64,000 nt of DNA from a virus (lineage: Duplodnaviria; Caudoviricetes), in IMG/VR virus record IMGVR_UViG_3300028833_000053; one strand, given 5' to 3'. Position numbers and translations under genes: made by a program. Of the stretch, positions 54,770-63,554 are shown one piece after another. The notes under the pieces were generated by a model. That model saw only the letters and a program-made list of their open reading frames with translations, was not told the origin of the DNA and made no database searches. Position 1 is the stretch's first letter, and each line of letters opens with the position of its first letter.

Positions 54770-54798
54770 TTGACATCCGAACCAAGGTTTGATATACT
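54770..54798 (+). promoter_or_regulatory. Sigma-70 early promoter
   Basis: TTGACA-N17-TATACT. Confidence 0.8.
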
Positions 54799-54829
54799 GA
54801 TTGCGTTTTGAAAAACAACCAATAGGAGA

Positions 54830-56265
54830 ATGAAACCAATGGACGAAATCTGGAAATCCGCACCAGTCCTGTGCGAGTTGAAGCGGAGTTCAACTCCGCG
54901 AATCAGCAAAGTGCCGTGCGACAAGGCAACAGCTCTTGTTGAGAAGTGCTTTGACTACAAGTTCACCGGCGAGTCAAAGGTGTTTCCCTTTGAGGTTCCG
55001 AAGGAGTTGCTTGACCTGGATGTGAACATCATCCAAATCTACGGTCCCTCCGGCGCTGGCAAGTCCACTTTCCTCACTGCCTTCCAGAAGGCCGGCTGGC
55101 ATTTCCCCAAGAGGGAGTATGACAATTCCAAGTCAATCATTTCCAACTTCATTGAGAATCCCAAGGCCGGGTCGAGGGCGTTCAACGCAGTTGGTCTGCG
55201 TTCCAAGCCGCTTTGGTGCAAGCCGCGCAACGTCTTGTCCACCGGCGAGGGCTTCCGCGCCGACATGGCGTTGAACCTTGAATCAAACGTCATGATTGAC
55301 GAGTACACCTCCGTTATCAACCGCGAGGTTGCCAAGTCCGCTTCCTTCAGCATTGGGAAGCACGTCCGCAAGATGGGGTACAAGAACGTCATCCTTTGTG
55401 GTTGCCACAAGGACATTGTGGAGTACCTGAAGCCCGACATCCTTGTTGACCTTGAGACCGAGAAAGTCTATGACTTGCGAGGGTTCAGCCTGGGAAAAAC
55501 ATCGACCTCTCCTTCGAGCAAATTGAGGGCGCGGAGCGGAAGCGAGAGGTCTGGAAAATTTTTGCTCCGCATCACTATTTGAGCCACGGAATCAACCTTG
55601 GCGCGGATTGCTGGGTGTTGAAATGGGGTGATGCCCTTGTTGGGTTCTGTGCGGTCCGCGTCCACCCTTCGGGAACCATGAACTTCGCACGTTCCATCCA
55701 CAGGCTTGTCATTCTCCCCGACTTCCAGGGGCTGGGCGTTGGAACCCGTTTCCTTGAGGAGATTTGCAAGATCTACGTCAACCGTGGAATCAAGGTGCAT
55801 ATCCGCACGGCGCACGAAAGCCTGGGCATCCACATGGGACACACTCCCACATGGAGGGCAACGGGCAGGAATGGAAAGCAGGGCGCGATTTCCAATGGCA
55901 AGATCAACGGCAAGAACCAGAACATGTACATCGTGAACTCCACAAGGTATTCATACGAGTACATGGGCGAGGATTGGGCGTTGCCCCACAAGGAAATTGT
56001 TGTGGATTCGCTTTCCAACATCGACATCAACGAGATGCGCAAGATGCTTGTGGAGTTGAAGAAGCACAACTACGTCACGGTGGTGCATAGCCGTGTGCGT
56101 GAAACCACAGCGTTGAACAAGCTGTGTTGCGAACTTGGAATCCGCACCGAGCTGCTTTACCTCAACAACCACGAGAAATCCGTGTTGAATGGAAAGCACC
56201 GTGGGAAGATGAAGCTTGTTTCGCTGAAGCCTGGGCATAAGCCCGTCTACAGGAAGGTGGCGTGA
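54830..56265 (+). CDS. ABC-type ATPase / GNAT acetyltransferase fusion via -1 frameshift at 55492-55498
   Basis: Walker A GPSGAGKST, signature LSTGE, Walker B MIDE, GCH; the -1 frame gives W..F..HHYL and RLVILPDFQGLGVG. Confidence 0.8.
55492..55551 (+). other. Programmed -1 ribosomal frameshift signal
   Basis: G_GGA_AAA heptamer, 5-nt spacer, stem GACCTCTC-CTTC / GAAG-C-GAGAGGTC. Confidence 0.75.
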
Positions 56266-56740: not shown

Positions 56741-56887
56741 CATTGGCCGCAGTTATCGTTTGGACAATTGGCGATATACTCGCTTTGGGCATTCTTGCCG
56801 TAATTGCGTTGCTCCTGGTTTGCTGCCTTGTCAAGGAACTTGCTTGCAGTGCGTGGAACAAGATAAAGGGAATGTTTGGGAGGGACA

Positions 56888-57376
56888 ATGAAAGTTCTGT
56901 TTCTTGACATAGACGGGGTTCTCAATTGCATGTGTCCTGCGCCTTTGCAGGACAACAACGATTGGATTGACCTTGACGAGTGGCGTTACGGGTTCAATCC
57001 AGATCTTGTGGCGAGGCTCCGCTATGTCATTGCGAACACGGACTGCAAGATTGTCATATCCTCATCGTGGAGACACCACGTCAACTATGCCCCATACCGG
57101 CCCGACATGAACTGGCGTGACGTGTTGGCTGAAAAGTTGAGGCGCACAAGGGATGAAATCATCGTCGGCGAGACCCCATCCGATCCAAAGGGTCAGAGGG
57201 GAAGGGAAATAGCGGAGTGGCTCAAGACGCATGAGGTTGAAACGTTTTGCGTTGTTGACGATGAAGTGGTTGACATTCTTCCATACATTGAAAATGCCAA
57301 TGTTGTCAAGACGGACATGACAATCGGCTTGACAATTGAGGATGCAAGGCGTATAATAAATGTGTTGAACAGATAA
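56888..57376 (+). CDS. HAD-family phosphatase (RNA-repair-associated type)
   Basis: FLDIDGVLN, ISSSWR, RGREI..WL, VVDD. Confidence 0.82.
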   Translation: MKVLFLDIDGVLNCMCPAPLQDNNDWIDLDEWRYGFNPDLVARLRYVIANTDCKIVISSSWRHHVNYAPYRPDMNWRDVLAEKLRRTRDEIIVGETPSDPKGQRGREIAEWLKTHEVETFCVVDDEVVDILPYIENANVVKTDMTIGLTIEDARRIINVLNR

Positions 57377-61000: not shown

Positions 61001-62125
61001 ATGACTATTATCAGCAAGTACATTGACCCAGGGACAAAGAACCTTGCGATTGGCGAGGAAGATTGGACGGCGCTGAACGCGCAGTACGACAAGGATTTCA
61101 TAAAGGCTCAGATGATTGAGGAAATCCTTGGTGGCAACGTCAGGTTTCCCCACAACGACATAACCATTGAGGACGCCGCTGATGCGTTCCGCAAGTTGAT
61201 TGACTACAAGTGCCGGGATTTCCAAATCGGTCAGGTTATGACAAGGTACGAGTACCGCTATCCAATCGGCGACAAGTTCCTTGTTGACAGCACGGTTGGA
61301 AACGATGCCTCAAACTTCTTCCAGCAGGAGGCGCGTTCTTGGGCAAGTGGCCACGGAGACCCTTGTCCTCAGGACGTGTGGAAAAGCGAGAGGTACTTGA
61401 ACTCCGCCTTGAAGCCATTGTGGACGTTGAAGATGAAGAAGATAAACATGCACTCGTTCCATTCGGCGATTGCATTGAGAAGGTATTGGGCATCCCAGTT
61501 CCGTCCCGCTATGGCGAAGTCAATCTACGAGAAGTTCAACGCGGTTGACGTGCTTGACTTCAGCAGCGGTTGGGGTGACAGGCTTTGTGGATTTTACTCT
61601 TGCCAGAACACGCGCTCCTACATTGGCATCGACCCAAACAAGGCGGTCTATGACCAGTACTTCAAGCAGGTTGACTTGTACAAGACCATAATGCCCAACA
61701 AGACAACGACTTTCTACAATGCGCCCGCCGAGGAAGTCATACTTGAACCCGAAATCGTGGACACAGTTTTCACCTCACCGCCGTATTTCTGCGCCGAGAC
61801 CTATACTCAGGACGACACTCAGTCTTGGGTGAGATACAAGGAGCGCAACGATTGGCTCAAGGGCTTCATGTTCCCTACGTTGAACAACGTGTGGCGGGCG
61901 TTGAAGCCGGGTGGACATCTCATAGTGAACATTTCGGACGTCCACCGCAAGGGCAAGGTTCAACAGATTTGCGACCCGATGAACGAATACATCCGCGTCA
62001 TTCTCCACGGAACTCTGGTGGATTCGTTTGGGATGAAACTTGGTCAACGTCCGGCGTCTGGCGCGTACAAGGGAAAGACCGGCACTTGCGTGGAGCCGAT
62101 TTGGGCGTGGAGGAAAGAGGCTTGA
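61001..62125 (+). CDS. DNA amino-methyltransferase (SAM motif before SPPY)
   Basis: VLDFSSGWGDRL, GIDPN, FTSPPYF, LKPGG. Confidence 0.88.
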   Translation: MTIISKYIDPGTKNLAIGEEDWTALNAQYDKDFIKAQMIEEILGGNVRFPHNDITIEDAADAFRKLIDYKCRDFQIGQVMTRYEYRYPIGDKFLVDSTVGNDASNFFQQEARSWASGHGDPCPQDVWKSERYLNSALKPLWTLKMKKINMHSFHSAIALRRYWASQFRPAMAKSIYEKFNAVDVLDFSSGWGDRLCGFYSCQNTRSYIGIDPNKAVYDQYFKQVDLYKTIMPNKTTTFYNAPAEEVILEPEIVDTVFTSPPYFCAETYTQDDTQSWVRYKERNDWLKGFMFPTLNNVWRALKPGGHLIVNISDVHRKGKVQQICDPMNEYIRVILHGTLVDSFGMKLGQRPASGAYKGKTGTCVEPIWAWRKEA

Positions 62126-62126
62126 T

Positions 62127-63554
62127 ATGACATATTTGGAACAACACAGAGACGAGATATTCAAGAAGTACGACAAGGAAACCTTGCTACGGGACGTTTG
62201 GAACTACAAGAACGGCAAGGGAAGGTTGACGAAGTTCATCAACCAGTTCTTTGAGGAGTGCATATTCAACTGCAAGGACAACCGATGCAAGTTGACGCCG
62301 ATGGAGGCTTTGCAGAACGATGAGGTGATGGCGAAAATCATTGGCGCGTTTGCGAAGAACCCAAAGCTCTACTATGGGACGGAAGTTGCGAACGTGAAGA
62401 AGTCGTTGTCTGTTTCAGGAATCGGTGCAAGGAAAGTTGCGAACTTCTGCCCAAGGAACGCAAGGACAATCTACAATAAATACTTTGACGATATACGTGG
62501 ATTGAACATCCTTGACACTTCAAGCGGCTTTGGAAGCAGAATGCTCGCCGCCACGTTGAATGGCGCAAACTACTTTGGATTCGATCCCAATCCCGAACTT
62601 CACGAAAAGTTGAAGGAGTGTTACAGCTTCTTGGTGGAGAACAAGGAAGTGCCAGAGGGTCAGGTGTGCAAGTTGTATTGCAAGGGAAGCGAGGAACATG
62701 TTCCCGAACTTGACGGCAAGATGGACTTGTCCTTCACCAGCCCCCCGTATTTCAACCATGAGACCTATGCTTCTGATTCCGGAACTTCCACAACCAACTA
62801 CAACAACTATGATGGTTGGCTGTATGAATTCGTTGTTCCAACATTGTTGAACACCTACAAGTACCTCAAGATTGGGGGACTTGCGATGATCAACATCAAG
62901 AACATGGTGTCAAGGGGAAAGAAGCCGCTTTACGATGACTTCATGCGCGTGTTCCAGATGATAGAGGGATTCGAGTACGTTGAAACCTTCACGATGGAAC
63001 ATCAGCACAAGAGGACGCTCAAAGAGGGCATGAACTACGTTGGATTCCAGGAACCAGTGATGGTTTACAAGAAGGTTGCTGAGTGCGAGAACGATCCCAA
63101 CAAGATTGTGGAAATGTTGAAGTCTGGCATACAAGGCGTTGTGCGAATGAAGAAAGAGGATACGCCAAAGGAGCTTCACGTTGTCTCAGTTTGGCGGGAG
63201 GATGCAACCCCAGCGCCCCAGCCAAAGGTTGAAGTTGTGGAAACACCCGTAGAAGTGAAGGAAAATGAGCCACCCAAGCCAAAATATGAAATTATCGTGG
63301 ATTCCCTTGACAACATAGACCCAAGGGCGTTTGCGAAGTTGATGCTTGAATTGAAGGACAAGGTGGATTTGTCAATAGTTCATGGGGACAATTCCACGGA
63401 TGACGTTGTGGTGAAGCTGTGCAATGGACTTGGATTCAAGTTGAAGGAGCTTTACAATTCCGACGAAAAACTCTATACTGAATATGTAGGAAAGAAGAAA
63501 CTGGTGAGTTGCCAAGCTGGGCAGAAGCCGGTGTTTGAAGTCATAGAGGTATAA
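62127..63554 (+). CDS. DNA amino-methyltransferase with an extra C-terminal domain
   Basis: ILDTSSGFGSRM, GFDPN, FTSPPYF; C-terminal domain shared with the GNAT. Confidence 0.88.
   Translation: MTYLEQHRDEIFKKYDKETLLRDVWNYKNGKGRLTKFINQFFEECIFNCKDNRCKLTPMEALQNDEVMAKIIGAFAKNPKLYYGTEVANVKKSLSVSGIGARKVANFCPRNARTIYNKYFDDIRGLNILDTSSGFGSRMLAATLNGANYFGFDPNPELHEKLKECYSFLVENKEVPEGQVCKLYCKGSEEHVPELDGKMDLSFTSPPYFNHETYASDSGTSTTNYNNYDGWLYEFVVPTLLNTYKYLKIGGLAMINIKNMVSRGKKPLYDDFMRVFQMIEGFEYVETFTMEHQHKRTLKEGMNYVGFQEPVMVYKKVAECENDPNKIVEMLKSGIQGVVRMKKEDTPKELHVVSVWREDATPAPQPKVEVVETPVEVKENEPPKPKYEIIVDSLDNIDPRAFAKLMLELKDKVDLSIVHGDNSTDDVVVKLCNGLGFKLKELYNSDEKLYTEYVGKKKLVSCQAGQKPVFEVIEV

Follow-up and report, generated by a model that had tools for sequence, protein, structure and literature searches.

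Two overlapping reading frames in a phage genome, the first encoding an ABC-type ATPase and the second, offset by -1, a GNAT acetyltransferase, raise the question of whether they are two genes or a single gene whose translation changes frame. The window (the whole stretch of DNA that was analysed, 64,000 nt long) comes from IMG/VR record IMGVR_UViG_3300028833_000053, and the gene is ascribed to a giant phage. To our knowledge, phages and bacteria have few conserved frameshift genes other than those of the tail chaperones, the transposases and dnaX. A sequence-only reading of this locus had proposed that a programmed -1 frameshift joins the two domains. This proposal is supported by the conservation of the heptamer, the hairpin and the -1 layout, by naturally fused homologs that define the junction and by structure models, in which the GNAT fold sets in at the slip site. 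It is therefore considered probable (roughly 0.8) that the locus is a single gene expressed by programmed -1 ribosomal frameshifting, which would give rise to an ATPase of 247 or 250 aa and an ATPase-GNAT fusion of 475 or 478 aa. In the literature on recoding (a 2016 review (PMC5009743), the PRFect paper, a 2025 preprint and full-text searches), no frameshift was found to be described for the ABC-ATPase-GNAT family.

Gene layout and the domains on either side of the break

The features of the locus are collected in Table 1. The 0-frame product ends in a 27-aa tail that is read through the overlap, and the -1 frame is open from 55474 through the TGA at 56263-56265, its translation including the peptide NIDLSFEQIEGAER. 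The opening of this frame after the TGA at 55471 and the absence of an ATG before its W..F..HHYL motif, both part of the sequence-only reading, were borne out and extend to the other common start codons: neither ATG, GTG nor TTG occurs in the -1 frame ahead of HHYL in the window or in the relatives L005, L006, L007, L168 and L170. Start-like codons are present there at some other loci, at positions that are not conserved, and the first one in the window is TTG 55579, the Leu codon of HHYL itself. The product sizes first proposed, 250 aa for the ATPase and about 478 aa for the fusion, were reproduced for translation from ATG 54830, with 223 residues contributed by the 0 frame and 255 by the -1 frame. 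ATG 54839, from which the products would have 247 and 475 aa, is probably the true start, because the AGGAGA at 54824-54829 stands 9 nt ahead of it and the N-termini of relatives begin at the equivalent residue.

Table 1. Features of the ATPase-GNAT locus, with positions in the window.
Feature	Coordinates	Strand	Basis
Sigma-70-like promoter, TTGACA-17-TATACT with TG extension	54770..54798	+	11/12 consensus matches; match to consensus only
Shine-Dalgarno-like AGGAGA (54824-54829) and candidate starts ATG 54830, ATG 54839	54824..54841	+	sequence
0-frame ORF1, ABC-type P-loop ATPase, 250 aa	54830..55582	+	phrog_11143 positions 7-191
TGA shutting the -1 frame upstream, within conserved TAT GAC (Tyr-Asp) codons	55471..55473	+	sequence
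Slippery heptamer G_GGA_AAA, 0-frame register	55492..55498	+	sequence and conservation
Spacer, 5 nt	55499..55503	+	fold prediction
Candidate stimulatory hairpin, 8 bp + 1-nt bulge + 4 bp, large variable loop	55504..55551	+	-20.3 kcal/mol
Post-slip -1 coding region, 255 codons + TGA: GNAT domain and C-terminal domain	55498..56265	+	
GNAT acetyltransferase fold, post-slip residues 2-157, acetyl-CoA motif QGLGVG	55501..55968	+	Acetyltransf_1 9.8e-9; 1y9k Z 14.2
0-frame stop TGA within HHYL codons	55580..55582	+	sequence
C-terminal domain, ~90 aa, common to a DNA methylase ORF of the same window	55984..56262	+	41% identity

The 0-frame product is an ABC-type P-loop ATPase with weak Pfam matches to AAA_23 and ABC_tran and with its Walker A (GPSGAGKST), signature (LSTGEGFR), Walker B (VMIDEY) and H-loop (CGCH) motifs all intact. 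The -1 product is a GNAT acetyltransferase that matches Pfam Acetyltransf_1 (9.8e-9) and, further, Acetyltransf_7/10. Both the ABC motifs and the acetyl-CoA motif of the GNAT domain are invariant in family alignments. The two halves fall on a single PHROG family, phrog_11143 (357 positions), the ATPase on positions 7-191 (2.1e-41) and the GNAT domain on positions 211-352 (2.3e-29), which indicates that the homologs are one protein and places the junction between profile positions 191 and 211.

When a natural fused homolog was modelled with AlphaFold2 (pLDDT 74), an ABC nucleotide-binding domain was followed by a lower-confidence linker at residues ~221-240 and a GNAT domain, and a Foldseek search with this model returned ABC nucleotide-binding domains of the Wzt type as well as the GNATs 1y9k, RimI and Naa50. 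The model of the window's own post-slip product (pLDDT 82.5) opens with a strand (residues 4-9) and then a helix (residues 12-22), both with pLDDT ~85, and solved GNATs align with it from model residue 1-4 to ~157 (1y9k, Z 14.2; RimI 5isv, Z 13.8). In this model the GNAT fold begins at the slip site, its first strand and helix being encoded by 55498-55578, ahead of any possible start codon. The matches listed for the post-slip model fell on the GNAT domain, not on the C-terminal domain. The last ~90 residues of the fusion share 41% identity (E = 6e-19) with the C-terminus of the product of an ORF at 62040-63554 (match at 63279-63551), a 504-aa protein that matches N6_N4_Mtase. On the GNAT side, this common module is made only after the shift. 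The methylase ORF overlaps the ORF at 61001-62125 by 86 nt in a different frame, and each of the two matches the start of the N6_N4_Mtase profile.

A search with the ATPase returned 147 protein relatives, of which the best 120 clusters (90% identity) were inspected and sorted into short and fused forms by their length and C-terminus. About 95 among these best 120 of 147 are short forms that end like the window's ATPase, drawn from many independent ENA, Logan and JGI assemblies, with tails that follow ...LGK (57 clusters), ...LKK (19) or ...LGE (17), and about 25 are fused forms of 386-416 aa with GNAT Pfam domains. The fused homologs read ...VYDTRGLPKRKFELQIYE..(R/K)(E/D)VWKIF..HHYLS, and the window reads ...VYDLRGFSLGK in frame 0 and then NIDLSFEQIEGAERKREVWKIFAPHHYLS in frame -1 (NIDLSFEQIEG...WKIFAPHHYL). 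Since the alignment with the fused homologs spans first frame 0 and then frame -1, the change of frame falls within FSLGKN, that is, at the heptamer. A blastn search of cultured phages gave no match, and a scan of metagenome contigs found no relative above ~49% identity.

The slip signal and its conservation

The codons read in the 0 frame at the slip site are CTG GGA AAA ACA (CTG GGA AAA = 55490-55498), which places a canonical X_XXY_YYZ heptamer in register. The G_GGA_AAA that had been pointed out at 55492-55498 was thus confirmed, as were the 5-nt spacer and the 12-bp bulged stem that had been placed at 55504-55551, which fold at -20.3 kcal/mol. In this stem GACCUCUC-C-UUC (from 55504) pairs with GAAG-C-GAGAGGUC (to 55551), giving 12 bp with a one-base bulge. 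The predicted hairpin begins 5 nt after the heptamer, where programmed frameshift signals have a stable structure ~5-9 nt downstream. Other properties of such signals are found here as well, namely a heptamer in register, a -1 ORF without a start codon that codes for conserved protein from the slip site onwards, and the retention of the signal in diverged relatives. However, G_GGA_AAA by itself is nothing unusual, with 13 copies in the 64-kb window against 19.5 expected, and the local fold z-score at the window's hairpin (-1.4 to -2.1) is modest against shuffles. RNAfold with longer context also favours a competing hairpin over the stem at 55504-55551. The case therefore rests on comparison, that is, on the register of the heptamer, its position at the domain linker and its conservation.

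At the DNA level the window's clade consists of the window and seven further loci, L005-L007 (IMG/VR contigs of giant phages, 200-418 kb) and L167-L170 (ENA and Logan), whose proteins are 57-73% identical. Each of the eight has retained the hairpin and a canonical heptamer along with the -1 layout. The conservation of the slippery site, which had been suggested as a check on the frameshift reading, spoke in its favour: the heptamer is G_GGA_AAA in four of the loci and is replaced by A_AAA_AAA in the other four. The Leu codon just ahead of the heptamer covaries with this replacement at its third base, which is free to vary: it is G before GGA and A before AAA, and it matches the heptamer in 11/11 loci when three loci of a sister clade are added to the eight. 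The arms of the hairpin are invariant at synonymous sites across the clade and the loop varies, with indels. In L168 the outermost G-C pair of the stem has become A-U by changes on both sides (a compensatory replacement) and the bulge is gone. Within the window's clade, the codons of invariant residues are identical at 7/13 positions in codons 216-251 vs 20/156 elsewhere (Fisher p = 0.0011).

Two other candidate elements were rejected. A G-rich Shine-Dalgarno-like motif (GAGG/GGGG/GGAG) lies 8-10 nt before the heptamer at 16/17 sites (55479-55483 in the window) and was considered as an upstream stimulator, but it was not accepted as evidence, since it lies over conserved Arg-Gly codons and fused homologs have it too. 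The 0-frame TGA within HHYL was likewise discarded as a conserved feature, the same triplet being present in that frame of fused genes, and the TGA at 55580-55582 looks incidental.

According to the frameshift reading, ribosomes translating the ATPase would reach G_GGA_AAA (55492-55498) in the linker past the ATPase domain, where the hairpin at 55504-55551, which begins 5 nt further on, would make them pause. Some of them, in a proportion that would represent the efficiency of the shift, would then slip back by one base in a tandem slippage, in which tRNA-Gly moves from GGA to GGG and tRNA-Lys from AAA to AAA. Ribosomes that do not shift would stop at TGA 55580, releasing the 247/250-aa ATPase with its short tail, and those that do would continue as ...LGK-NIDLSFEQ... 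into the 475/478-aa fusion of ATPase, GNAT and C-terminal domain. The two products may work jointly, for example as an ABC-type dimer carrying one or two acetyltransferase modules, in an ATP-dependent acylation, possibly of DNA.

Alternative accounts of the break

The alternative that survives best, though improbable, is that of two separate genes, with no fusion and with the GNAT translated alone, either by termination-reinitiation at the UUGA overlap (TTG 55579/TGA 55580) or from a non-canonical start. Two genes are what the annotations of cultured phages call, as in Lactococcus P335 (Orf24/Orf25), Oenococcus Vinitor-27, Streptococcus Javan464 and Thomasclavelia TR-TP1, and a -1 offset is typical of coupled genes, being the commonest one for ordinary overlapping gene pairs (ATGA). 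A genuine two-gene version also exists within the family: in L174 (1026-1047) the GNAT starts from a separate ATG that forms part of an ATGA overlap, together with a Shine-Dalgarno-like motif, which indicates that the two domains can work as separate chains. However, the codon equivalent to TTG 55579 is CTG in 6/7 of the window's clade relatives, and the ~27 codons of the -1 frame upstream of it are conserved as protein without a start codon. Initiation at TTG 55579 would moreover cost the GNAT its conserved and well-modelled first strand and helix and so delete part of the fold, since these are encoded at 55498-55578. A pair of separate genes also leaves the heptamer, the covarying Leu codon and the hairpin unexplained.

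A transcriptional shift is less probable still. It would require RNA polymerase to slip on the A run and add one A to some of the mRNAs, from which the fusion would be made by ordinary translation. Homopolymers do occur at the same linker in other lineages of the family, as T9 or A7. The T9 loci are without a hairpin (median fold z +0.5) and the in-frame relatives of their clade have T10, so that slippage at the level of RNA or DNA is plausible in those lineages. In the window, by contrast, the A run is only A5, and in the closest relatives it is A4 followed by G. Runs of 4-5 bases are too short for efficient slippage of RNA polymerase, which makes transcriptional slippage unlikely in the window's clade. 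The register of the heptamer is conserved too, and so is a hairpin with a 5-nt spacer, a hallmark of ribosomal signals for which polymerase slippage has no need.

An artefact or decay is hardly credible, whether the assembly of the A run was wrong by one base or the gene was inactivated recently. One extra A would restore a single ORF, and homopolymer-length variants occur in the family (G7 vs G5 in L173; T10 vs T9 loci). However, the same break recurs in ~95 of the best 120 of 147 protein relatives, which stem from many ENA, Logan and JGI assemblies that are independent of one another, and in eight DNA loci down to ~57% identity. Both halves of the gene are under purifying selection and, as the relatives have A4-G, an error would have to recur. 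With the break conserved in independent assemblies, an assembly error is ruled out.

Recoding across the family and its possible function

The family as a whole was represented by 175 loci, sorted by the frames in which profile HMMs of each half match. They comprise 123 single fused ORFs, 47 loci with a -1 offset, one with a +1 offset and four that are cut off, and a same-frame stop is found in none of the 175. Recoding is accordingly widespread, at ~28% of the 171 classifiable loci, although the loci are related to one another and the 47:1 bias towards the -1 frame therefore does not count as independent evidence. In all -1 lineages the same domain linker carries an in-register motif prone to slippage, namely G_GGA_AAA, A_AAA_AAA, A_AAT_TTT, G_GGG_GA(A/G) or a run of T9 (23 loci), with less clear T5/C5 runs at the linker in Lactococcus P335, streptococcal and Oenococcus phages. 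In the lineages with a canonical heptamer or G5, a hairpin of 9-14 bp is found 3-6 nt downstream, with arm sequences that differ by lineage, and the hairpins of L012 and L097 differ by a compensatory pair. RNAalifold found no consensus structure in a MAFFT alignment of 13 sites. As the 3' arms of the lineages do not lie in homologous columns, single-sequence folds with the fused loci as controls were used, which gave a median fold z of -2.16 in the 23 non-T9 -1 loci vs -0.27 in the same region of the 123 fused loci (Mann-Whitney p = 1.8e-9).

A FastTree phylogeny of the family contains three shifted clades and at least about five changes between the fused and the shifted state. At this one linker the recoding has originated or been reshaped several times, with different slip signals, and the family therefore offers a natural series for the evolution of frameshift signals. 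The sole +1 locus, L173, has G7 (1842-1848) where its relatives have G5, which is probably a tract-length variant or a miscall. L019 and L065 have T10 (near 2090) and are in frame inside the T9 clade, so the slip in that clade may be transcriptional or even occur at the DNA level. These loci suggest tract-length instability or miscalls in the homopolymer lineages. In Streptococcus, Oenococcus and Lactococcus phages (L002, L003, L004 and L176; temperate Firmicute phages), a split ABC/GNAT gene with overlapping ORFs stands after a DNA methylase/ParB-like gene and ahead of the terminase genes, and its candidate slip site is a conserved GGTTTTTC and/or CCCCCA, with weak structure. The distribution of recoding bears on annotation: where many phage records have a 'hypothetical protein' after an 'ABC transporter ATP-binding protein', the two are most likely halves of a single recoded enzyme. 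Among the records affected are those of Lactococcus P335, streptococcal prophages, Oenococcus phages and Thomasclavelia phages.

Two well-known systems invite comparison with the proposed shift. The tail-assembly chaperone gpG/gpGT of phage lambda reportedly depends on a -1 frameshift at G_GGA_AAG, described by Levin et al. in 1993. Many phage analogues of the lambda frameshift are known (PMC10885494). The present gene resembles gpG/gpGT in being phage-encoded, in its near-identical heptamer (G_GGA_AAA here), in its predicted pair of a short and a C-terminally extended product and in an arrangement that is conserved while the sequence diverges. It differs in that it encodes an enzyme and not a structural chaperone, in that the extension is a complete catalytic domain and in its strong downstream hairpin. 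Most homologs are plain fusions, and the shift is therefore lineage-specific, unlike that of gpG/gpGT. In E. coli dnaX, the tau and gamma forms result from -1 ribosomal frameshifting at A_AAA_AAG, a heptamer that is preceded by a Shine-Dalgarno-like element and followed by a hairpin, and in Thermus dnaX from transcriptional slippage on an A run (PMC5009743). Shared with dnaX are a heptamer with a hairpin ~5-6 nt downstream, two predicted forms of an ATPase-containing protein and a G-rich Shine-Dalgarno-like element ~8-10 nt upstream, although the element overlaps Arg-Gly codons here and is also present in fused homologs. The ABC-ATPase-GNAT family is further like dnaX in that solutions of the ribosomal and of the homopolymer type are both found in it. 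In dnaX shifting gives the short product, whereas here it would give the long fusion.

As to function, the Mom protein of phage Mu is a GNAT-superfamily DNA adenine acyltransferase that works without an ABC ATPase. The GNAT superfamily and a proposed DNA-modifying role are common to Mom and the present enzyme. No Mom structure or profile was among the listed Pfam and structure matches, the GNAT matches being generic (Acetyltransf_1/7/10), and the nearest GNAT structures are protein and small-molecule acetyltransferases. The gene also resembles the ABC-ATPase-GNAT fusions of phrog_11143, which are found in phages and prokaryotes, carry the JGI label 'ABC-type ATPase with predicted acetyltransferase domain' and share with the window's gene the order of the domains, homology in both halves and, in models, the ABC and GNAT folds. 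The window's gene differs from them in needing a -1 shift and in its extra ~90-aa C-terminal domain. In section 3.4.7 of PMC7824862, which cites Iyer et al. 2013, this family is predicted to acyl-modify a DNA base in an as yet uncharacterised reaction, in agreement with what the sequence-only reading had stated of such fusions.

A DNA-modifying role of the ATPase-GNAT fusion is a plausible prediction, and some support is lent to it by the C-terminus shared with the methylase and by the gene neighbours in other phages, which include DNA methylase, ParB-like, DNA polymerase, helicase, ligase or terminase genes. Frameshifting would set the ratio of short to long product, a ratio that may be relevant to the function of this uncharacterised, predicted DNA-modifying enzyme. 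A more elaborate proposal is speculative and rather doubtful as a whole: the frameshift would serve as a stoichiometry device for an asymmetric enzyme, one short ATPase and one fusion would form an ABC-type dimer for ATP-dependent base acylation of phage DNA (an uncharacterised hypermodification), the C-terminal domain would dock this dimer with the DNA methylase in a single modification complex, and the lineages would have reached this two-product solution independently with slip signals of different kinds (heptamer plus hairpin, T9, A7 and G5).

Two further observations concern individual genes. In Tenacibaculum phage pT24 (L175), the example phage cited in PMC7824862, the ABC-GNAT gene is in one frame with an in-frame stop inside the GNAT domain (...WNGVPV*INVISP..., ~1594-1596), and it is annotated as two 'ABC transporter' CDS. 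In the window, a gene encoding a HAD_SAK_2 domain (1.7e-29) is located just downstream of the ATPase-GNAT locus, at 56876-57376, and a homolog occupies the same position in the L005 and P0004 contigs.
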